Below are positions 6,117-29,649 of a DNA stretch of 64,000 nt, in pieces. This stretch comes from Sedimentisphaerales bacterium. Its GTDB lineage: Bacteria > Planctomycetota > Phycisphaerae > Sedimentisphaerales > UBA12454. The notes under the pieces are model-generated. The model did not search any database. It saw nothing but the letters and a program-made list of their open reading frames with translations, and had not been told where the DNA came from. The number at the start of each line of letters is the position of its first letter. The first letter of the stretch is position 1. A program made the translations under genes and the position numbers. Location: positions 270,477 through 334,476 of the forward strand of contig JBEKRK010000001.1 in NCBI GenBank assembly GCA_049518795.1, read 5' to 3'.

Positions 6117-6432
6117 AACCCGCCGGCATCCCTAAGGGATAAAGGCCGACGGGCTAAATAACGGCGAGGAATTTCGGTTGAGTTTGGGGAGAAAAGAATT
6201 GGGGTATAGGGTTTAGGGTTTAGATGTAAAATAAGTTTTGACAAAGAGATGAAAATGGTAGAGAATAAGCATACGTAAAACAGTTGCGGTTGCGCGACTC
6301 GTCACGTATTACGTTATACGGTAACGTTCACGTCCGCCGGGGGCGGATAAATATTGGCGGGGCTAACCACAAAAAGAAAAACGACCCCCGCAGTTTCTTT
6401 GCAGAAACTAAGCGCGGGGGCTAACCACGAAG
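6115..6432. repeat. cluster of REP-like GC-clamped hairpins, several followed by GGCTAACCAC
   Basis: 6115..6160: CGAACCCGCCGGC-ATCCC-TAA-GGGAT-..GCCGACGGGCTAAATA. 6334..6370: TCCGCC-GGG-GGCGGA...GGCTAACCAC. 6382..6432: CCCCCGC-AGTTTCT-TTGC-AGAAACT-..GCGGGGGCTAACCACGAAG. Confidence 0.6.
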
Positions 6433-6691
6433 TTTTAGCTCCTATAATAATTTTAAAAGATAATTCCACCTTTAGCGTCCAAAATTGTTCAAGACCTATA
6501 ATTACCATTAAGCAGGTTTTTTTATGCAAATAAAGCCTATTTAAGGGGCAATTGTAATGTTTAATGGTAAAGCAGATAAAGGTTTATGTCGAAACATATC
6601 CTGATTGCAGAAAAAGACGGAATGCAATTCCCATAGTCTCTTGTGTAGGGGGATTGGGGGTAATTAAGAAAGAAATTTTAAGGAGATAAAA

Positions 6692-7129
6692 ATGAAAGCT
6701 AAGAAAACAGTTGTCAGAGCCGGCTTCACATTGGTCGAGCTTGCGGTGGTCATCGTGATCATCGGCGTGCTGGCTGCTTTCGCAGTGCCGAAGTTCAGCG
6801 CTTCGGTAGAACGGTCGAAAGCTGCTGAAGCCTTCAACTACCTGTCAGCCATAGAGGCTGCCCAGGAGCGTTTCCATGCCAGACAAGGCACCTATGCTAG
6901 CAACCTTGCAGACCTCGATGTTCAATTTGCCCAACCGAAGTATTTCGATGTTGGCGAAGTTGCAGGCGACGATCTTGAGACTGGCTGGAGTTTGACTCTT
7001 ACGCGCAAGGGTGCTTCAGGCGGTTACGGTCTGTACACGGTAGTCTTCACGCAGGACGGCTTCGATACAGCAAACAGCACGATTGCTACTGATGAGAAAT
7101 GTGTTGCTATCAACCCGATGCAGACCTAA
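6692..7129 (+). CDS. type IV pilin / T2SS pseudopilin-like major subunit, paralogue 1
   Basis: 145 aa. The prepilin leader ends ...VRAG|FTLVELAVVIVIIGVLAAFAVPKF (G-1, F+1, E+5). AAGGAG lies 6 nt upstream of the ATG. Confidence 0.85.
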   Translation: MKAKKTVVRAGFTLVELAVVIVIIGVLAAFAVPKFSASVERSKAAEAFNYLSAIEAAQERFHARQGTYASNLADLDVQFAQPKYFDVGEVAGDDLETGWSLTLTRKGASGGYGLYTVVFTQDGFDTANSTIATDEKCVAINPMQT

Positions 7130-7180: not shown

Positions 7181-7612
7181 ATGAAAAAGATGATTACAAA
7201 AGGTGGATTTACACTGGTCGAGCTTGCAGTGGTTATAGTAATCATCGGTGTGCTGGCAGCTTTCGCAGTGCCGAAGTTCAGCGCTTCGGTAGAACGGTCG
7301 AAAGCTGCTGAAGCCTTCAACTACCTGTCAGCCATAGAGGCTGCCCAGGAGCGTTACCATGCCAAGCAAGGCACGTATGCTAACCAACTTGCCGCCCTTG
7401 ATATTCAGTTTTCCGAGCCAAAGTATTTCACTGTTGGCGAAGTTCAGGGGGATAGTCTCGAGACAGGATGGAGACTGACTCTTACACGCAAGGGTGCTTC
7501 AGGCGGTTACGGCGAATACACGGTAACGTTCACGCAGGACGGCTTCGATACTGAAAACAGCACGATTGCTACTGATGAGAAATGTGTTGCTATCAACCCG
7601 ATGCAGACGTAA
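7181..7612 (+). CDS. type IV pilin / T2SS pseudopilin-like major subunit, paralogue 2
   Basis: 143 aa, leader MKKMITKGG|FTLVELAVVIVIIGVLAAF. Shares a 97-nt identical run (7259..7355 = 6776..6872) and a 53-nt identical 3' run with paralogue 1. Confidence 0.85.
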   Translation: MKKMITKGGFTLVELAVVIVIIGVLAAFAVPKFSASVERSKAAEAFNYLSAIEAAQERYHAKQGTYANQLAALDIQFSEPKYFTVGEVQGDSLETGWRLTLTRKGASGGYGEYTVTFTQDGFDTENSTIATDEKCVAINPMQT

Positions 7613-15288: not shown

Positions 15289-17373
15289 ATGATAAAAATG
15301 GGACGAAAACACAGAATTGCAGCAATAGCCGGGCTGCTGATTTTAGGCCTGATTGTTTTGGTTTGGGCCAAGAGACCTACTCCATCAATTACAGCGGCTT
15401 CCGTCAATAAAAAATCTGTTAAAACTAATAAAACAGAAAATAAAAAAGGTAACATAACAGACAACAATCAGGTTTCAGACAGCAATGCCGTCAAAGGCAA
15501 ATCTAAAAAAGCAAAGGGTAAAAAATCGACAGACAGGAAGACTAAAATCGAAGATGACAATCAGGTATCGGACAGCAACTGGATAATGGAACTGGCTAAA
15601 GGAATTGCACCATCTGTTCTGGCTGATGTAAATGATAATAAAAATAACATATCAACGGATAGTAATGATGTCTTGGATGCCAATAAGCCTGCCGACAATA
15701 ATTTACCTGACGCCAATAATATAAAGAAAAAAGAGGACAAGCCGCCGACGGAGGCGGTTTTGCCGTTGCCTACCCCCAAATTTGCTGAACTGTCAGCAAA
15801 TTTGAGCAATACCCGAACCGGAGTTCAATCGCTTGTGTTTGTAAGGAATATGCCGATAATAGACGCACTTCAGCTTTTGGCGGTTCGATATGGCAAAAAT
15901 ATTATTCCTACATCGAGTGTAACCGGCTCTCTCAATTTCAACAGGCTCAATAACGTAAATTTCGAAGAGGCGATGAGTGCGATTCTGGGTAACGATTACA
16001 GGTATCAGCAGCAGGGGAATCTGGTAAAAGTATATTCGGTAAAGGAATATCAGAATAACGAAATGATTTGCAGAGTATTTACCCTGTATTACATTTCCGC
16101 AGCCGAGGCGAAAAAGATGATTGTTCCTGTGTTGAGTCCCGACGGCAAAATTGAAGTTACAGCCGCGGCCCAGACCGGCGTGCCGGTCGAAGAAACTGTC
16201 AGCGCGCCGTCAGGTGCGGGAGATGCCGTAGCCATAAATGATATGGTTGTAGTGTATGATTATCCGGACCGAATAGAACGGGCCGAACAGATTATAGCCG
16301 CTATAGATGTCAGACCAAAGCAGGTTCTTATCGAGGCGACAATAATGACGGCAACCCTTACTAATGGAATGCAGCTTGGCGTTGACTGGCAATATCTTGA
16401 AAAAACAGTTCTTAGCGGTCTTGTAACAACTCAATCCCGGCCAAACGGTTATATTAACGTTTCAGGCAGTTCGACGACAATGACAGGCACTACAGGTATT
16501 GACGGCGGCCTAACCGTAGGCACAACAATGGGCGGTGTGGCGGCATTTATCAAAGCTGTAGAATCAATTACCGATGTTACTATATTAGCCAATCCGAAAA
16601 TACTGGCAGCAAATAAGCAGTTAGGACAGGTATATATTGGAACAAAGGTCGCCTATCAGTCGCAGACGACGCAAAGCAGCGGCAACGACAACACAACTGC
16701 GAAAGTGGAATTCCTCGATACAGGCACGAAATTATCCTTCAGGCCGTATATCGGAGACGATGGTTATATACGAATGGATATTCATCCCAAAGACAGTTCG
16801 GCCTCTCTCAGGACGATTTCCACAGGAGTTTCGGCTCCTGATGAAACATCAGCGGAAATAGTTACAAATATAGTAGTTAAAGACGGTGAAACGATAGTTA
16901 TAGGCGGGCTTTTCAGGGATAAAATAAGCACGGTGAAAAAACAGGTGCCTTTGCTTGGCAGTATACCGGTTGTCGGCGTAGCCTTTAGCGACCATGCTGA
17001 TGAAGCCATAAGAGAAGAGGTGATTGTTCTTCTGACGCCGCATATTATTGACGAGCCAAGCCAGGCAGATGGCGCTGAAAGAGCCGAGGACGTTGCTCGC
17101 AAGAAGATGGGAGCTGAAGATGAACTTCATCCAACCAACAGGATGAAGATGGCCTCCGAGTGTTATGAAAGAGCTGCGGTATTATACGTCGGCGGCAGAA
17201 AGACCGAAGCATTAAAGGAGCTCAAGAGCGCAATTGAATTATATCCAAATTATTTAGAAGCAATTGCGCTCGAAGAAAAGATTTTCAGTGAAATAGACCC
17301 GAAGAAAAAACCGGTCAGGAAAACAATTGATAAAGCCGAAAAGCCGGAATCGAACAAGTGGCGCAGAAAGTAG
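15289..17373 (+). CDS. secretin (GspD/PilQ family) with Lys-rich N-terminal region and C-terminal TPR-like tail
   Basis: 694 aa. Signal/TM at the N-terminus, duplicated D(N/D)NQVSDSN unit, secretin C-domain ending ...VPLLGSIPVVGVAFS, then a TPR-like helix pair (ALKELKSAIELYPNYLEAIALEEK). Confidence 0.88.
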   Translation: MIKMGRKHRIAAIAGLLILGLIVLVWAKRPTPSITAASVNKKSVKTNKTENKKGNITDNNQVSDSNAVKGKSKKAKGKKSTDRKTKIEDDNQVSDSNWIMELAKGIAPSVLADVNDNKNNISTDSNDVLDANKPADNNLPDANNIKKKEDKPPTEAVLPLPTPKFAELSANLSNTRTGVQSLVFVRNMPIIDALQLLAVRYGKNIIPTSSVTGSLNFNRLNNVNFEEAMSAILGNDYRYQQQGNLVKVYSVKEYQNNEMICRVFTLYYISAAEAKKMIVPVLSPDGKIEVTAAAQTGVPVEETVSAPSGAGDAVAINDMVVVYDYPDRIERAEQIIAAIDVRPKQVLIEATIMTATLTNGMQLGVDWQYLEKTVLSGLVTTQSRPNGYINVSGSSTTMTGTTGIDGGLTVGTTMGGVAAFIKAVESITDVTILANPKILAANKQLGQVYIGTKVAYQSQTTQSSGNDNTTAKVEFLDTGTKLSFRPYIGDDGYIRMDIHPKDSSASLRTISTGVSAPDETSAEIVTNIVVKDGETIVIGGLFRDKISTVKKQVPLLGSIPVVGVAFSDHADEAIREEVIVLLTPHIIDEPSQADGAERAEDVARKKMGAEDELHPTNRMKMASECYERAAVLYVGGRKTEALKELKSAIELYPNYLEAIALEEKIFSEIDPKKKPVRKTIDKAEKPESNKWRRK

Positions 17374-17384
17374 GGGGGCGTTAA

Positions 17385-17837
17385 ATGCGGATGCCTGGGA
17401 AAAACAGTAGAGCCGGTTATACACTTTTTGAGGTGTGTGTGGCGATGATTATTATCTGTATTCTTGTCAGCATCTGCGCACCGATATACACAAAAGCTAT
17501 TGAACAGGCCCGGTTAGACAGCGCTGCCGGCAATTTGAAAACTATATGGGCGGCACAAAGAGCATATTGGCTGAAAAACAAAACATTTGCCTCGAATCTG
17601 ACATTGCTGGGGGATGAAAATTTAATAGGCACGTCTCTTGCCACGCAAAGCGAACCAAATGCGATGTATGTTTATGATATAGAAGATGCCGATGCCATCT
17701 CCTTTAGCGCATCTGCGGTAAGGAACGGGAGCAGAACCTGGACAGGCCAAATTCTAATTGATGAAAATGGTCGGCTTAGCGGCAGTATAAGCAAGGAAGG
17801 GTCTTCCATAACTCTCGAACCTCTGACATTGGAATAA
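17385..17837 (+). CDS. pseudopilin (GspG-like)
   Basis: 150 aa. Leader MRMPGKNSRAG|YTLFEVCVAMIIICILVSI (E+5 present). The Shine-Dalgarno region is an uninterrupted G6 run (17373..17378). Confidence 0.75.
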   Translation: MRMPGKNSRAGYTLFEVCVAMIIICILVSICAPIYTKAIEQARLDSAAGNLKTIWAAQRAYWLKNKTFASNLTLLGDENLIGTSLATQSEPNAMYVYDIEDADAISFSASAVRNGSRTWTGQILIDENGRLSGSISKEGSSITLEPLTLE

Positions 17838-17838
17838 A

Positions 17839-18252
17839 ATGAAAAAATTACTCTCAAAATTTCGAGGCAGAAGAATTTCGGCAGAAGCTTTCAGCCTTGT
17901 TGAGCTGGAGGTAACATTAGTGATACTTGCGATAGGTCTGTTTGGTTTCGCCGGTTTGTTCAAAGTTTATTCGCAGCAGATAAGTTTTATAGAAAGATAC
18001 AGCGAACCTAATATGTATGTGAATAATCCGGAAGAAGAAGCGATAGAATTCTGGCTTGTGTCTCAATCCAATCAATGGATGCGTCAGATTGGAGCGCCTG
18101 CAGCAATAAGCAAATCGGCAGGACAAACTGCCTGGACTCCGCCGGTGGACGGCAACGACATCGGACAATACACAGTTACAATGACTTCCACGCCTGTAAA
18201 GAATTTTGCCTTAAACAAAGCTGTTGTAAATATAAAAGTTGTGAAAAATTAA
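17839..18252 (+). CDS. minor pseudopilin
   Basis: 137 aa. ...SAEA|FSLVELEVTLVILAIGLFGF, with an atypical A at -1. Confidence 0.65.
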   Translation: MKKLLSKFRGRRISAEAFSLVELEVTLVILAIGLFGFAGLFKVYSQQISFIERYSEPNMYVNNPEEEAIEFWLVSQSNQWMRQIGAPAAISKSAGQTAWTPPVDGNDIGQYTVTMTSTPVKNFALNKAVVNIKVVKN

Positions 18253-18263
18253 AAAGAATATAG

Positions 18264-18755
18264 ATGAAAACAGATGAGAAAAATTTGCATTTATTTAGAA
18301 TGACCAAAAGCGGGTTCACGCTTATGGAACTTCTTGTCGTATCTATACTTATGGTTGTAGTGATGATGATTACGGCCCAGTTTTGGAGATGGTTTTCGCC
18401 CGGCGTCGCTGATTTAATTGCCAGAGAGCGTCTTATGCGAGAATCACGTATAATGATGCAGAGCCTTGCTTATGATTTTGGTGCGGCAAGTGAAATTTCA
18501 GGCGGAGGCCAGCTTTTTATTGACGGCAATATACGATATTATCAAGAAGGCAATGGAGACCTTAATCTTTATCGCCAGGACATTTCAGGAGGAACGGATT
18601 TTGCCATTGCCGATTGCGTATCGGATTTTTCGGTTGAAGAAAATCCGTCCGGCTCGAATCTTTGGCAAATCACTGTGCAACTTGAGGCACGCGCTTATAA
18701 AAATAATCAGCCTTTCAGGAAAGAAATAGTTTTTCACTGGAGTCCGCCGGATTAG
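18264..18755 (+). CDS. minor pseudopilin (GspJ-like size)
   Basis: 163 aa. ...MTKSG|FTLMELLVVSILMVVVMMI, a canonical prepilin site. Confidence 0.7.
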   Translation: MKTDEKNLHLFRMTKSGFTLMELLVVSILMVVVMMITAQFWRWFSPGVADLIARERLMRESRIMMQSLAYDFGAASEISGGGQLFIDGNIRYYQEGNGDLNLYRQDISGGTDFAIADCVSDFSVEENPSGSNLWQITVQLEARAYKNNQPFRKEIVFHWSPPD

Positions 18756-18764
18756 GAACAATAT

Positions 18765-19178
18765 ATGAAAAATTATTACAGGAATAAAGGCTTCGCACTG
18801 GCGGGTGCAATAATGTTTCTTCTGCTTGTGATGATTATGTGGATTGGAGTTACAAGACAGCTGGGGACGAATCTGGATATAGAAGAACATATTCAAAATC
18901 AAAAAGCATATTATGATGGCTGCGGAAAAGCAATTTCCTGGGGCCTGACGCTTTGCGAAACTGGTTATCCTTATACAGGAACCGCGTCAAAATCTTATTG
19001 GGTGCAGATAGACTCACAAAAGTATGTGATAGTATATGACAGAATACAACCTTATTTGGAAATTATTTCCCATTTTCCTTTTTTTCGAGTAGTGTATAAT
19101 TATGAAGTAACCGCAAGGCCGTATGTTACCGGTTCTGACGACAGTATCCGGGCTGCGCCGAATAGTTTTGGCACTTAA
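18765..19178 (+). CDS. minor pseudopilin lacking Glu+5 (GspK-like feature)
   Basis: 137 aa. ...YRNKG|FALAGAIMFLLLVMIMW, with no E at +5. Confidence 0.55.
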   Translation: MKNYYRNKGFALAGAIMFLLLVMIMWIGVTRQLGTNLDIEEHIQNQKAYYDGCGKAISWGLTLCETGYPYTGTASKSYWVQIDSQKYVIVYDRIQPYLEIISHFPFFRVVYNYEVTARPYVTGSDDSIRAAPNSFGT

Positions 19179-25800: not shown

Positions 25801-26895
25801 TTACGGCAGAAATTGAGCCGTTTTTTTCAGCTTTTTAGGCAGGTAGTCGGTAACGACGAATTCGAGGCCGTGCTTGGCGAAAGCCTGCTGTTCGACACGG
25901 ACGCCCATATTAAGCATTTGATTTATCGCGACCTGCCAGGGTTTAAAATGTTTTACGAAGGGGTCGTTTTTCAGGGCGTCCTTGGCGCGTTTAATATCGA
26001 CGTCTTTGAGCGGATGTGTCGGCAGTTTGTAATCGATAATGTCCTGCGGCGTTACGCCGAGGAATGTTGCCTGCGGGACACAGAAATACTGATTAAGATG
26101 CGCTGCGTTGCCTGAGCCGACCTTGAGAGTTCGATAGATATTGAAATAGCCGTAGGGGTCGCCATCGACAAAGGCGTAAACGGGGGCTTTTAATTTATCG
26201 GATAATCTCCTGACAAATCTTCTGCAGGCCCTTGTCGGCACGCCGCCCATACTGATAAGGATGCAATTATTTTTGTCCCAGTAATCGTATTTGACGAGCC
26301 GCTGGAACATACCTGCTGTTTCGATGGCGAGAATGAATTTGGCGTCGCTCTGGAATTCAAGATTTTCGACGTCGATTGGTATTGAATATGAGCCTGAGCC
26401 GAATTTTGTGCAGTCGATTTTGAGTCTTTTTCCTTTCGAATCGGTGTCGATAACAAAGAGATTTCCCGCGACGTCGCCGCCTTTTTCTTCGGGTATGAAT
26501 TTTAGCTGCTCCCTGTTGATTCCGAACATTGCCTCGACGTCGTCCATAATTGTGTCGGATTCAGGCTGCTCGGCAAAACCTGCCTTGCCCCAGTTTTTGG
26601 AGATATAATACGCCTCCCTTTTGGTGGCCATATCGTTTGTGTCGATTAGCTCCTTGGAAAGCGACATCATCTTTAAAGTTTGGGCGAAGGTTTTTACAGT
26701 TCCGACCGTAAGCGTTCTTTCCTTGTTTTTGCCCGCAATTTCAAAATAACCGCTTTTTGGAAGATACTTTACGTTGCCAAGCGACCGCACAGGGGTTGAC
26801 ATAGTGGGCTTCTGCTTTTTTAAAATCTTTTCGTGTATGGACTTAGCGGTATTTACGATTTTATCGCTGACGGCTGAATCGGTTCGTTTTGTCAT
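25801..26895 (-). CDS. top6A: DNA topoisomerase VI subunit A / Spo11 homologue
   Basis: 364 aa. 5Y-CAP block KREAYYISKNW (Tyr96/97). Toprim ILAIETAGMFQRL (Glu) and YAFVDGDPYGYFNIY (DxD). Length matches archaeal Top6A. Confidence 0.8.
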   Translation of the reverse strand: MTKRTDSAVSDKIVNTAKSIHEKILKKQKPTMSTPVRSLGNVKYLPKSGYFEIAGKNKERTLTVGTVKTFAQTLKMMSLSKELIDTNDMATKREAYYISKNWGKAGFAEQPESDTIMDDVEAMFGINREQLKFIPEEKGGDVAGNLFVIDTDSKGKRLKIDCTKFGSGSYSIPIDVENLEFQSDAKFILAIETAGMFQRLVKYDYWDKNNCILISMGGVPTRACRRFVRRLSDKLKAPVYAFVDGDPYGYFNIYRTLKVGSGNAAHLNQYFCVPQATFLGVTPQDIIDYKLPTHPLKDVDIKRAKDALKNDPFVKHFKPWQVAINQMLNMGVRVEQQAFAKHGLEFVVTDYLPKKLKKTAQFLP

Positions 26896-27072
26896 TTAGA
26901 CGGCTCCCTTTGAAATTGTGCATTAGGGGAAAATTTCAGTAAAATAATACATATAATCTAAGTGGAAAAAAGGGGGAATTCAAGCCTAATTTTTTTGTAT
27001 TTTTATGCTGGAAATGGCTTGACAGGGTCGCTTTTTTCTGGTTTTATGGATTTCTGGGTTTAGGGAATTCCA

Positions 27073-27101
27073 TTGACATTGTTCTTTAAAATTGATATAA
27101 T
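27073..27101 (+). promoter_or_regulatory. perfect consensus sigma70 promoter with no downstream plus-strand ORF
   Basis: TTGACA (27073..27078), 17-nt spacer, TATAAT (27096..27101). Confidence 0.6.
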
Positions 27102-27107
27102 ACGTCC

Positions 27108-27358
27108 GGTGTAAATAGACTGCTTAACAGCAGTTTAATAAACCTCGGCGAGGCAGTGTCAAATCAGTGGTTTCCCCCCAGCCACTTTGACCGTCTCGCC
27201 ATTTTGAAGCCTTTAGGGGCTTCAAGGGGCGGCGAGAGTAAATATCCAATGACGCGGTCTCCCCCCAGCCACGTCTATATCTCGCCGTAAAATCCTCGGC
27301 GAGGAAGGAACAAAATGTGGTTGCCCCCCAGCCACTTTGTCCTACTCGCCCTTTTTTA
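27108..27358 (+). ncRNA. candidate ~250-nt sRNA with three repeated C6-loop hairpin modules
   Basis: Three modules at 27148..27201, 27232..27287 and 27299..27351. Each is GGCGAG-N13/14-[6-9 bp stem with loop (T/G)CCCCCC]-N5-8-CTCGCC. Inner hairpins: AGTGGTT-tcccccc-AGCCACT; GACGCGGT-ctcccccca-GCCACGTC; GTGGTT-gcccccc-AGCCAC. An 8-bp hairpin (27205..27226) sits between modules 1 and 2. Module 3 is followed by CTTTTTTAT. Confidence 0.45.
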
Positions 27359-27428
27359 TGCGCAGAATCAGCCACGAAGACACAAAGACACGAAGAAAAA
27401 TGATTAAGAATTAAAAAATGAGGATTTT

Positions 27429-27839
27429 TTACTGTCCCATAATCTGGATGTTGACGGTTCTTCTTCGCGGACCATCGAATTCGCAGAAATAAATTCCCTG
27501 CCAGGTGCCTAATTTCATTTTGCCGGAAGATATAAGAATTGTTTCACTGCATCCGATAATGGAGCTTTTGACGTGAGCGTCTGAATTGCCTTCTGAATGT
27601 TGGTATCCGCTCCTGTGCTGTGGGGCAAGTTCTGAAAGTGTAAGCAATATATCGTGAACGACATCCGGGTCTGCGTTTTCGTTTATAGTAATCGCCGCTG
27701 TTGTATGTGGACAAAAAACTATGACGTTGCCGTCCGATATATCTGCTTTGTCAACTAAACTCTGGATTTTGTCTGTAATATCGATAAGTTCGTTCCTTTT
27801 ATTCGTACTGACGGAAAATGAATCATTAAAAATCTTCAT
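27429..27839 (-). CDS. yjbQ: YjbQ-family (UPF0047) protein
   Basis: TTAAITINENADPDV, GNSDAHVKSS and GTWQGIYFCEFDGPRRR are family hallmarks. I prefer the start at ATG 27839 (AGGA upstream) over the tracked 27887, which would overlap argS. Confidence 0.8.
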   Translation of the reverse strand: MKIFNDSFSVSTNKRNELIDITDKIQSLVDKADISDGNVIVFCPHTTAAITINENADPDVVHDILLTLSELAPQHRSGYQHSEGNSDAHVKSSIIGCSETILISSGKMKLGTWQGIYFCEFDGPRRRTVNIQIMGQ

Positions 27840-27846
27840 AATTTTC

Positions 27847-29649
27847 CTACATCCTTTCAATCGTTTCAATGCCGAGGAGGTTTTCAAGGCCGTGGCGGAT
27901 TGTCCGTGCGGTCAGTTCGCAAAGCAGTAGCCTCGAAGGCCTAATTTCAGGCTCAGCATCGAGAACAGGACAGGCATTATAAAAGGCACTGAATTTTTGT
28001 GCTAATTCGTAAAGATAGCTTGTCAGAAAATTAGGCCGAAGGTCAGAAATAGCTGAATTAAACGCTTCATTATATCTGATTAGCTGTTTTGCAAGCTCAA
28101 GCTCAGCCGGCTCATTTAAATGAATTTCTTGGACGCCTTTCAGCTCTTTTTCTGTATCAATTCTTTTTTCCTGTCCCTTTCTGCTTATGGATTTAACCCT
28201 CGCATAAGCATATTGCATATAAGGAGCGGTATTGCCGTCCATCGCGAGCATCTTATCGAAACTGAAGATATAATCGCTTGTGCGATTATTAGAATAATCA
28301 GCATATTTTACCGCCCCGATTCCGACGGCCTGAGCTATTTTTTCTTTTTCAGTATCTTGTAATTCGGGATTTTTTTCCTCAACGACTGCCTTTGCTCTTT
28401 TGACGGCCTCATCTAAAAGCTCTTTTAGCTTTACATTTTCACCGCTGCGGGTTTTTAAAGGTTTTCCATCTTCGCCTAATACGCTTCCGAAGGTAACGTG
28501 CTGGAGTTTGATTTTATCATTTGCCCAGCCTGCCATTTTTGCCACGGCAAAAAGCATTTCAAAATGCAGTTTCTGCCTTGCATCTGTAACGTAAATAATC
28601 CTGTCAGCTTTTAGTTCGTTTATACGATACCGCAACGCCGCCAAATCCGTTGTTGCATAAAGATATGCACCATCGGACTTTTGAATAATAAAAGGCATTG
28701 GCTTGCCTTCTTTGGTTTTAAAGCCTTCGGGAAAAACACAAATCGCCCCGTCTGATTCAACGGTAAGACCGAGTTTTTTAAGGTCATTGACAACCATAGG
28801 CAACTTTTCATTATAAAAACTTTCGCCTCTAACAACTTGATAATCAAAGTGTTTGTCCGTAATTTTAACCCCGAGCCTATCGTATATTTCTTCACACTCT
28901 GCAAGCGATGCGCGAACAATACTTTTCCAAAAAGCAATTGCATCATCATATCCTTGTTGCAATTCGACTACCCATCGACGTGCTTTTTTAGCAAACTCAG
29001 GGTCGGAGTCGTAACGTATCTTAGCTTTTCTGTATAAATCTTCAGTATCAGATATCGAGAAATCACCTTCTGTATATACTTTATGACCGGTAGCTCCTTC
29101 GAAAGCAGCCGCCATTCGTCCTTCAAAAACTTGCTGTATCAGCATTCCAAACTGTGTTCCCCAGTCGCCGATGTGGTTTTGGCGAATGACTTTATGGCCT
29201 GCAAGTTCGAGCATTCGGCAGATGCAGTCGCCGATGATTGTGCTTCTTAAATGGCCGACGTGCATTTGCTTTGCGATATTCGGGCCAGAAAAATCAACAA
29301 CGACAGTTTCCGCCTTTTTTGTCTTTTCAATGCCGAGATTGTCGCTGGCGTTTATATCGAGCAGATTTTTTGCGATAAATTCCGGTTTAAGTTTGAGATT
29401 TATAAATCCTGCACCTGCGATTTGGGGTTTTTCGCAAATATCATCAATTTGCAGGTTTGCTATGATTTTTTCAGCGAGCTGACGAGGGTTGGCTTTTAAT
29501 TGTTTGGCAAGGGCAAGGGCGTTATTGCTTTGATAATCGCCGAATTTAGGGTCGGTAGCAGGGGTAACGATTGCGGGAATATGCCGGCCCGCTGCTTTTG
29601 CAATTGCTATGCAAATTCTCTCTGAAATAATTTCTATTGCAGGCTTCAT
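27847..29649 (-). CDS. argS: arginine--tRNA ligase
   Basis: 600 aa. HVGHLRS (HIGH-type), ...LKTRSGENV (KMSKS-equivalent), and a DALR anticodon-binding C-terminus ending ...ETIERM. Confidence 0.93.
   Translation of the reverse strand: MKPAIEIISERICIAIAKAAGRHIPAIVTPATDPKFGDYQSNNALALAKQLKANPRQLAEKIIANLQIDDICEKPQIAGAGFINLKLKPEFIAKNLLDINASDNLGIEKTKKAETVVVDFSGPNIAKQMHVGHLRSTIIGDCICRMLELAGHKVIRQNHIGDWGTQFGMLIQQVFEGRMAAAFEGATGHKVYTEGDFSISDTEDLYRKAKIRYDSDPEFAKKARRWVVELQQGYDDAIAFWKSIVRASLAECEEIYDRLGVKITDKHFDYQVVRGESFYNEKLPMVVNDLKKLGLTVESDGAICVFPEGFKTKEGKPMPFIIQKSDGAYLYATTDLAALRYRINELKADRIIYVTDARQKLHFEMLFAVAKMAGWANDKIKLQHVTFGSVLGEDGKPLKTRSGENVKLKELLDEAVKRAKAVVEEKNPELQDTEKEKIAQAVGIGAVKYADYSNNRTSDYIFSFDKMLAMDGNTAPYMQYAYARVKSISRKGQEKRIDTEKELKGVQEIHLNEPAELELAKQLIRYNEAFNSAISDLRPNFLTSYLYELAQKFSAFYNACPVLDAEPEIRPSRLLLCELTARTIRHGLENLLGIETIERM

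Follow-up and report, generated by a model that had tools for sequence, protein, structure and literature searches.

The RsaE/RoxS, RNAIII and CcsR ('cuckoo') RNAs of bacteria carry multiple hairpins with C-rich or CCUCC motifs that are able to mask Shine-Dalgarno sequences, and the CcsR genes are built of tandemly repeated units. A related use of C-rich loops is found in two other small RNAs (sRNAs). The 6C sRNA of Actinobacteria pairs through such loops with G-rich ribosome-binding sites, for example AGGGGGG, and does so without a chaperone (PMC6486639). RepG, a conserved and abundant sRNA of Helicobacter pylori, has a C-rich loop in its terminator hairpin and uses it to base-pair with a G-repeat within the leader of an mRNA (PMC8295292). 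Here, we consider a locus with comparable features in a 64-kb stretch of DNA from a Sedimentisphaerales bacterium of the Planctomycetota (GCA_049518795.1, contig JBEKRK010000001.1, positions 270,477 to 334,476), which as a whole is called the window. The contig is metagenome-assembled, and the proteins of the window have their closest counterparts in Sedimentisphaerales/Phycisphaerae. Positions 27108-27357 of the plus strand very probably form an independent sRNA gene, judging from the sequence, the predicted structure and the family to which it belongs. This stand-alone gene of about 250 nt would be a tripled member of that family, with three successive hairpins that each present a loop of six C residues. 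It is a new RNA family of a known general kind, apparently undescribed so far, of which the window holds an expanded three-module variant.

Like the 6C sRNA, known as B11 in Mycobacterium, the window RNA has loops with at least six C residues, is conserved across a large taxon and is encoded by a stand-alone gene. The 6C RNAs are recognized by at least six consecutive C residues in a loop, and each of the three loops in the window contains exactly six. The two differ in phylum and in G+C content (43.5% in the window), and the window RNA matches no Rfam 15 model at E values up to 10. Furthermore, the basic unit is here one C-loop hairpin, which is also the terminator and follows a variable hairpin, and the number of modules ranges from one to three. 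With RepG, it shares a C-rich loop in the terminator hairpin of a conserved sRNA. Their sequences are unrelated, however; the loop of RepG is C/U-rich and has one known G-repeat target, while no conserved G-repeat partner was found for the window RNA in the limited syntenic DNA covered. Several hairpins per transcript, each displaying a C-rich motif, are reminiscent of RsaE/RoxS, RNAIII and CcsR, but again there is no Rfam match, the loops are homopolymeric C6-C8 instead of UCCC or CCUCCUCCC, and the hairpin around the loop is nearly invariant. Finally, sponges of the CsrB/RsmZ type also consist of repeated stem-loops with one conserved loop motif and a lineage-dependent repeat number. Their GGA loop motif is absent from the plus strand and possible on the minus strand only, and neither a link to CsrA nor an Rfam match was found. 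With regard to Rfam, the whole window at gathering thresholds yields three tRNAs and nothing else. Searches with cmscan up to an E value of 10 place no family on the RNA region of the window or of a one-module relative (L018), and such permissive scans listed only chance matches to eukaryotic families outside the hairpins. Full-text literature searches on small RNAs in Planctomycetes or Phycisphaerae brought up nothing relevant.

The RNA gene sits in a gap of about 530 bp, flanked on both sides by minus-strand genes: topoisomerase VI subunit A (25801-26895, with TP6A_N, Topo_VI_alpha and Toprim domains) and a YjbQ/UPF0047 protein gene (27429-27887). The order is argS, yjbQ, the RNA, the topoisomerase VI-A gene and yggS, with all protein genes on the minus strand. 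The gap contains no credible plus-strand open reading frame (ORF), and an 83-aa minus-strand ORF at the locus has no Pfam match. A promoter designated P2 (27073-27101, plus strand) has the sequence TTGACA-N17-TATAAT with a TG-extended -10 element. It agrees with the sigma-70 consensus at 12 of 12 positions and is the sole perfect promoter site within 26000-28500; the predicted transcript start is near G27108. In the relatives L002, L003, L006, L007, L063 and L065, P2 is kept as TTGACT-N17-TATAAT.

In the minimum free energy (MFE) fold, the predicted RNA shows a 5' hairpin, UAGACUGCU-UAAC-AGCAGUUUA (27116-27137), which aligns to helix 1 of the covariance model R1 discussed below. It is followed by the unpaired linker AUAAACCUC (27138-27146), containing a CCUC that is nearly invariant across the family. 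Module 1 (M1, 27147-27200, C6 at 27174-27179) is composed of the clamp GGCGAGG/UCUCGCC, the middle stem GUCAA/UUGAC and the apical stem GUGGUU/AGCCAC around the loop UCCCCCC. A linker hairpin, GAAGCC-UUUAGG-GGCUUC (27206-27223), also predicted in the MFE fold, separates it from module 2 (M2, 27230-27287, C6 at 27261-27266), which has the clamp CGGCGAG/CUCGCCG, the apical stem-loop GACGCGGUCU-CCCCCC-AGCCACGUC and the loop CUCCCCCCA. Sequence-divergent hairpins occupy the position of the linker hairpin in L002, L003, L007, L065 and L071. Module 3 (M3, 27298-27350, C6 at 27324-27329) combines the clamp GGCGAG/CUCGCC with the stems GGAACAAA/UUUGUCC and GUGGUU/AGCCAC and the loop GCCCCCC. M3 doubles as the terminator hairpin: its apical part was listed by a terminator scan, and it is followed by a C and six T residues, the U-tract of an intrinsic terminator (27351-27357, T6 at 27352-27357). 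The motif ATGCGCA lies just past this tract (27358-27364). All of these features are on the plus strand.

The 253-nt plus strand folds at -104.5 kcal/mol with z = -7.9, and none of 200 shuffled sequences folds as well. The C-runs are predicted to be unpaired, with probabilities of 0.84-1.0. All three copies of the 12-mer CCCCCCAGCCAC in the 64-kb window are at this locus, against an expectation of 0.06 copies; none of 100 shuffles reaches three. A preliminary description of this DNA, made from the letters alone, had already pointed out the perfect promoter, the gap without a credible plus-strand ORF between minus-strand genes, the three modules of about 54 nt with their GGCGAG...CTCGCC clamps and C6 loops, and an intrinsic terminator in plus orientation after the third; all of these stand, at the same coordinates, and the fold places the C-runs in loops as it had proposed. 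The 5' hairpin, the linker hairpin and a second promoter-like site, P1 (see below), were not part of that description.

The RNA is not confined to the window. Close relatives, collected via the topoisomerase VI-A gene at 86-93% identity, have the same element in the same gap and orientation, and the promoter is retained. A pattern scan of genomes, with one genome per species, in which the clamp and the loop were fixed and the inner stems left free, extends the family to at least 117 species-level genomes among the matches listed, almost all of them Planctomycetota and mostly Phycisphaerae/Sedimentisphaerales. Three of the 120 stretches listed are evident false positives from other phyla. The true matches come from metagenome-assembled genomes (MAGs) labelled Phycisphaerae, Sedimentisphaerales, Phycisphaerales or Planctomycetota, with one MAG series labelled Pirellulales. 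In a second scan, of metagenome contigs, the apical stem-loop alone was fixed and the clamp was left free; even so, 110 of 114 matches are the same RNA, with the clamp GGCGAGG...CCUCGCC. In nearly all of about 120 loci, the RNA is located between yjbQ, usually together with argS, and yggS, on the opposite strand; topoisomerase VI-A lies between the RNA and yggS in only part of them. The flanking proteins are about 55-70% identical to those of the window. The locus is a concrete and strongly supported sRNA candidate in Planctomycetes/Phycisphaerae, fixed at one chromosomal position and probably with high expression. Since it is conserved across the Phycisphaerae/Sedimentisphaerales genomes recovered, the RNA is to be found in nearly every MAG of this group.

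Nearly all members contain a single module and consist of a variable 5' hairpin, AACCUC, the 54-nt hairpin and U5-6. The basic unit of about 110 nt comprises a sigma-70 promoter, a short leader, the variable 5' hairpin, the unpaired AACCUC and the 54-nt hairpin, which presents a C6-C8 loop and, with the U-tract, also forms the terminator. After AACCUC, the one-module consensus reads GGCGAGGCAG-YGUGG-NNNA-CCGGUYU-C7-A-GCCGG-NN-CCAC-CA-CCUCGCC. Of 208 family loci, 196 have seven C residues (C7) in this run, and the lengths range from 6 to 8. Among 209 distinct loci, 143 have TTGAC[AT] upstream, with a peak 75-90 nt before the hairpin, at the edge of which the -35 element of P2 falls (74 nt before M1). 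A TAnnnT at a spacing of 16-18 accompanies 114 of these 143 sites (92 at 17), compared with 4 of 482 random 140-mers. A run of at least four T residues follows the module in 201 of the 209 loci. Over 230 nt downstream of the terminator no further conserved RNA was found; these are mostly the 3' ends of convergent genes, and only a TGCGC is kept.

The covariance model R1 was built from 32 one-module RNAs, none of which belongs to the clade of the window. On the window it matches 27111-27208 with 65.2 bits (E = 7e-16), corresponding to M1 and the 5' hairpin, and 27243-27358 with 37.3 bits (E = 5e-8), a match to M3 with M2 being handled as an insertion; nothing else in the 64 kb is credible. On both strands of 100 related loci (707 kb), it gives exactly one match per locus, and family members score 59-119 bits. 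Therefore, the element is a single-copy gene and not a dispersed repeat. The window has the R1 match, the position between yjbQ and yggS, and a promoter and U-tract of its own, and so shows every feature by which the family is recognized.

In an alignment of 100 sequences, 99.1% of the cells at paired positions form standard pairs, as against 93.4% in shuffles and 37-62% when the partners are slid. Ten of the 21 pairs have changed on both sides, among them all five pairs of the 5' hairpin across the family, and none of 500 shuffles reaches any of these measures. This alignment was fitted to R1 and is hence biased toward the structure, so that independent evidence of covariation matters. Such evidence comes from the window's own clade and from its multiplied modules. 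In the R1 alignment, the apical stem is GUGGU/GCCAC in this clade and CCGGU/GCCGG in the rest, and the middle stem is GUCAA/UUGAC as against GUGG/CCAC; both are two-sided swaps with pairing kept. Among the eight three-module RNAs, the clamp of M2 is GGCGAG/CUCGCC or GACGAG/CUCGUC, and its apical stem occurs in four sequences. L007 and L071 combine the clamp GACGAG/CUCGUC with the apical stem AUAGUUU/AAACUGU or AUAUGGUUU/AAGCCAUAU, and the changes are compensatory. The loop and its closing pairs (GGU-Y-N-C6-8-A-GCC) remain unchanged while the stems change. In 95 of 98 sequences, a U·G pair closes the loop; on the opposite strand, this pair would be a C·A mismatch. The U·G pair, the T-run, the family-wide promoter peak and the perfect promoter of the window together fix the plus strand. 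Two proposals of the preliminary description have held up: the independent plus-strand sRNA gene, on the grounds of promoter, terminator, covarying structure, synteny and one copy per locus; and the inner stems that differ in sequence and still pair, as seen both in the R1 alignment and in the three-module RNAs.

RNAs with more than one module have turned up only in the clade of the window, namely in the window, L002, L003, L007, L063, L065, L071 and L096. L006 and L024 likewise belong to this clade; their single module has the stem sequences of the clade, and in L006 it is directly followed by the terminator. The three-module form is therefore, as far as the sequences tell, a lineage-specific expansion of a much wider one-module family. 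In L096 (2341-2597), a separate 5' hairpin and ACGAACCUC linker accompany the third module, which shows that whole units were duplicated in tandem. Throughout the eight three-module RNAs, the C-runs are located in hairpin loops and are unpaired with a probability of about 1.0. M2 in L063 (3151-3401) is the exception; it has lost the 3' clamp, and its C-run is partly paired (unpaired probability 0.40). Furthermore, a promoter-like site read from the sequence, P1 (TTGACA-N17-TTTTAT, 27019-27047, plus strand), is situated 54 bp 5' of P2. It is retained as TTGACA-N16/17-TyTTAT in L002, L003, L006 and L007 and has no counterpart in the one-module family, and for this reason the RNA may be expressed from tandem promoters in the window's clade. 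RNAs with one, two and three modules form a natural series, which provides a ready experiment on the relation between seed copy number and regulation.

Concerning the role of this RNA, the reading that we favour is a conserved sRNA gene that works by loop pairing with G-rich RNA, and we give it about an even chance. The RNA would probably act in trans: its exposed loops of C residues, perhaps together with the unpaired CCUC, would pair with G-rich mRNA leaders or ribosome-binding sites and so alter the translation or stability of the mRNA, and three loops per transcript would offer more pairing sites per molecule. By analogy with 6C and RepG, an action of C-loops on G-rich ribosome-binding regions is plausible; the pairing mechanism and its targets, which are drawn from this analogy, are put forward tentatively. 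If C-loop pairing is indeed the mechanism, the strategy of 6C and RepG reaches a third, unrelated phylum and a low-G+C background. Two forms of action in cis were considered and rejected. The neighbouring divergent 5' untranslated regions offer no target, as the runs there are C-rich on the mRNA strand, and a cis-regulatory leader or riboswitch does not fit, with no same-strand gene downstream, yjbQ convergent and a terminator at the end of the unit.

A number of observations weigh against pairing with G-rich RNA. No target is supported in the window or in related loci, although the target tests are weak in that the DNA covered consists of syntenic loci and not of whole genomes. Outside the locus, the window contains only three runs of G6 or longer. 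One of them (17373-17378) comes immediately after the stop codon of a secretin gene. The ATG of a pseudopilin gene (at 17385) lies 6 nt further on, and this first pseudopilin gene has no other Shine-Dalgarno-like sequence than this G6. The preliminary description had named the G6 as a target. This proposal could not be upheld: the G6 is absent from three orthologous secretin-pseudopilin junctions (57-71% protein identity), which carry AGGTAAAGAGTT or AGGTAGGAGATTTTTG in its place, and one of these junctions shares its contig with the one-module RNA of L006 and so comes from a genome that has the RNA. A second target it had named, the pilin leader GGGGGATTGGGGG (6648-6660), is only half conserved in its G-tract. 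Two close orthologues (79-81% identity) retain the first G5 and lack the second, and an orthologue at 74% identity has neither. In 1.69 Mb of related DNA, runs of G6 or longer are not enriched before ORF starts (8.3%, versus 7.6% for A6 or longer), while Shine-Dalgarno-like pentamers precede ORF starts in 12-17%. Many of the G6+ cases before ORF starts are the antisense of the RNA itself, and no recurrent G-run context emerged from these 1.69 Mb. The usual Shine-Dalgarno sequence of the neighbouring genes, GGGAG, is a poor match to a pure C-run. In addition, hardly any position of the 54-nt hairpin varies, in contrast to the freely diverging 5' hairpin and neighbouring proteins, and a loop seed needs less constraint than this. 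The interpretation given in the preliminary description is partly supported: the sRNA gene and its distinction from a REP (repetitive extragenic palindromic) element stand, and neither named target is supported.

Some features of these two regions may be mentioned for their own sake. The secretin gene and four prepilin-type (pseudopilin) genes form an operon at 15289-19178. The pilin leader precedes the first of two tandem pilin paralogues, 6692-7129 and 7181-7612, which are 86% identical, and includes a block, AGTCTCTTGTGTAGGGGGA, retained in the orthologues at 79-81% identity. In the G/C-rich intergenic stretch upstream of the pilin genes, GGGGCTAACCAC is found twice, 58 bp apart (6359-6370 and 6417-6428).

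The near-invariance of the hairpin is the main reason why a different role has to be kept alive, that of an RNA that binds or titrates protein. The 54-nt poly-C-loop hairpin would then dock a conserved RNA-binding protein or machine, and a transcript with three modules would hold more proteins, as with the varying hairpin numbers in sponges of the CsrB/RsmZ type. We regard this as rather unlikely, although several observations speak for it. The clamp GGCGAGG/CCUCGCC was recovered in those 110 of 114 matches by a scan that did not ask for it, and the genome scan, which had left the middle and apical stems free, found them to be more than 90% identical. The CCTC directly 5' of the hairpin, which was not in the search pattern, is invariant or at least 90% conserved in 110 sequences. 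At the same time, the 5' hairpin varies freely, the flanking proteins are about 60% identical, the module number changes from 1 to 3 between lineages, and no mRNA target is supported. On the other side, no candidate protein is tied to the locus, whose neighbours are housekeeping genes (argS, yjbQ, yggS and topoisomerase VI-A), and we know of no bacterial poly-C-loop sponge that could serve as a precedent. Moreover, the window's clade has swapped both inner stems with compensatory changes, so that the stem sequence as such is not indispensable. A bolder form of the idea, to which we give somewhat less credit, holds that the RNA is the RNA half of a previously unknown, class-wide ribonucleoprotein and not primarily an antisense regulator. 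The hairpin would bind, and perhaps titrate, a conserved planctomycete protein, with a dose tuned by one to three hairpins per transcript. If protein binding proved true, the locus would suggest that a new global post-transcriptional regulator exists in this phylum, about whose RNA biology very little is known.

It is very unlikely that the locus has no function as an RNA and instead serves, where the convergent yjbQ operon ends, as a strong terminator, insulator or DNA-level element. The last hairpin and the T-tract together form a textbook intrinsic terminator, yjbQ and the locus converge, and a DNA-palindromic TGCGCA lies past the T-tract in 139 of 209 loci, its TGCGC core falling within 16 nt of the hairpin and beyond the predicted 3' end of the RNA. 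However, the T-tract is on the strand opposite to yjbQ, and the yjbQ strand shows GAGGUU after the hairpin and no run of U residues. There is no same-strand gene upstream, the element is under a conserved promoter at a fixed distance, and a covarying 5' hairpin and an invariant loop are unnecessary for termination. The TGCGC past the U-tract and the near-invariance of the whole hairpin are two features that remain unexplained.

A transcript of the minus strand, with the G-rich loops UGGGGGGA as, for example, GGA-type sites for a CsrA-like protein, was rejected as highly improbable. That strand does fold beyond its shuffles (z = -3.3 overall; -2.4, -3.3 and -2.7 for M1, M2 and M3), and its loops would end in GGA. 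The plus-strand scores are much stronger (-6.0, -4.3 and -5.5 for the same modules), no promoter-like site faces in the minus direction, no U-tract follows the hairpins there, and the conserved U·G pairs turn into C·A mismatches, while the promoter and the T-run are on the plus side throughout the family.

Least credible of all is that the modules are copies of a dispersed repeat of the REP type or like miniature inverted-repeat transposable elements, or that the region codes for a small proline-rich peptide: the three similar tandem units and the ORFs that run through the C-run in some relatives (39 aa in L018, where it would yield FPPQPIPPP) are outweighed by the single R1 locus in the window and the one copy in each of 100 loci, by the confinement of CCCCCCAGCCAC to this locus within the window and the conserved promoter, and, for the peptide, by the lack of an ATG-started ORF of at least 20 codons across the C-run in 121 of 208 loci, differing frames in the others, no conserved start, and C-run and module lengths that differ by single bases.

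Finally, several minor elements surround the RNA gene in the window and its relatives. In L003 (2313-2958), and also in L004 and L005, a nucleotidyltransferase/HepT-like toxin-antitoxin pair, absent from the window, is inserted between argS and yjbQ. Many one-module loci, for example L020, L028, L029 and L031, have a short GGGG(U)GG...CCCC hairpin, followed by a T-rich stretch, ahead of the RNA promoter; it lies in the divergent intergenic region, about 20-40 nt 5' of the -35 element. In the window, the palindrome GGAATTCC (27064-27071) adjoins the -35 element of P2, and the box AATTCAAGCCTAA (26977-26989) lies about 30 bp upstream of that of P1. Both are retained in close relatives and could be sites for a regulator. 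Short repeats with a period of 8 nt are present on both flanks of the gene: TTTCTGG/TTTTATGG/ATTTCTGG/GTTTAGGG upstream (27035-27066) and AGCCACGA/AGACACAA/AGACACGA downstream (27370-27396), the latter also in L003.

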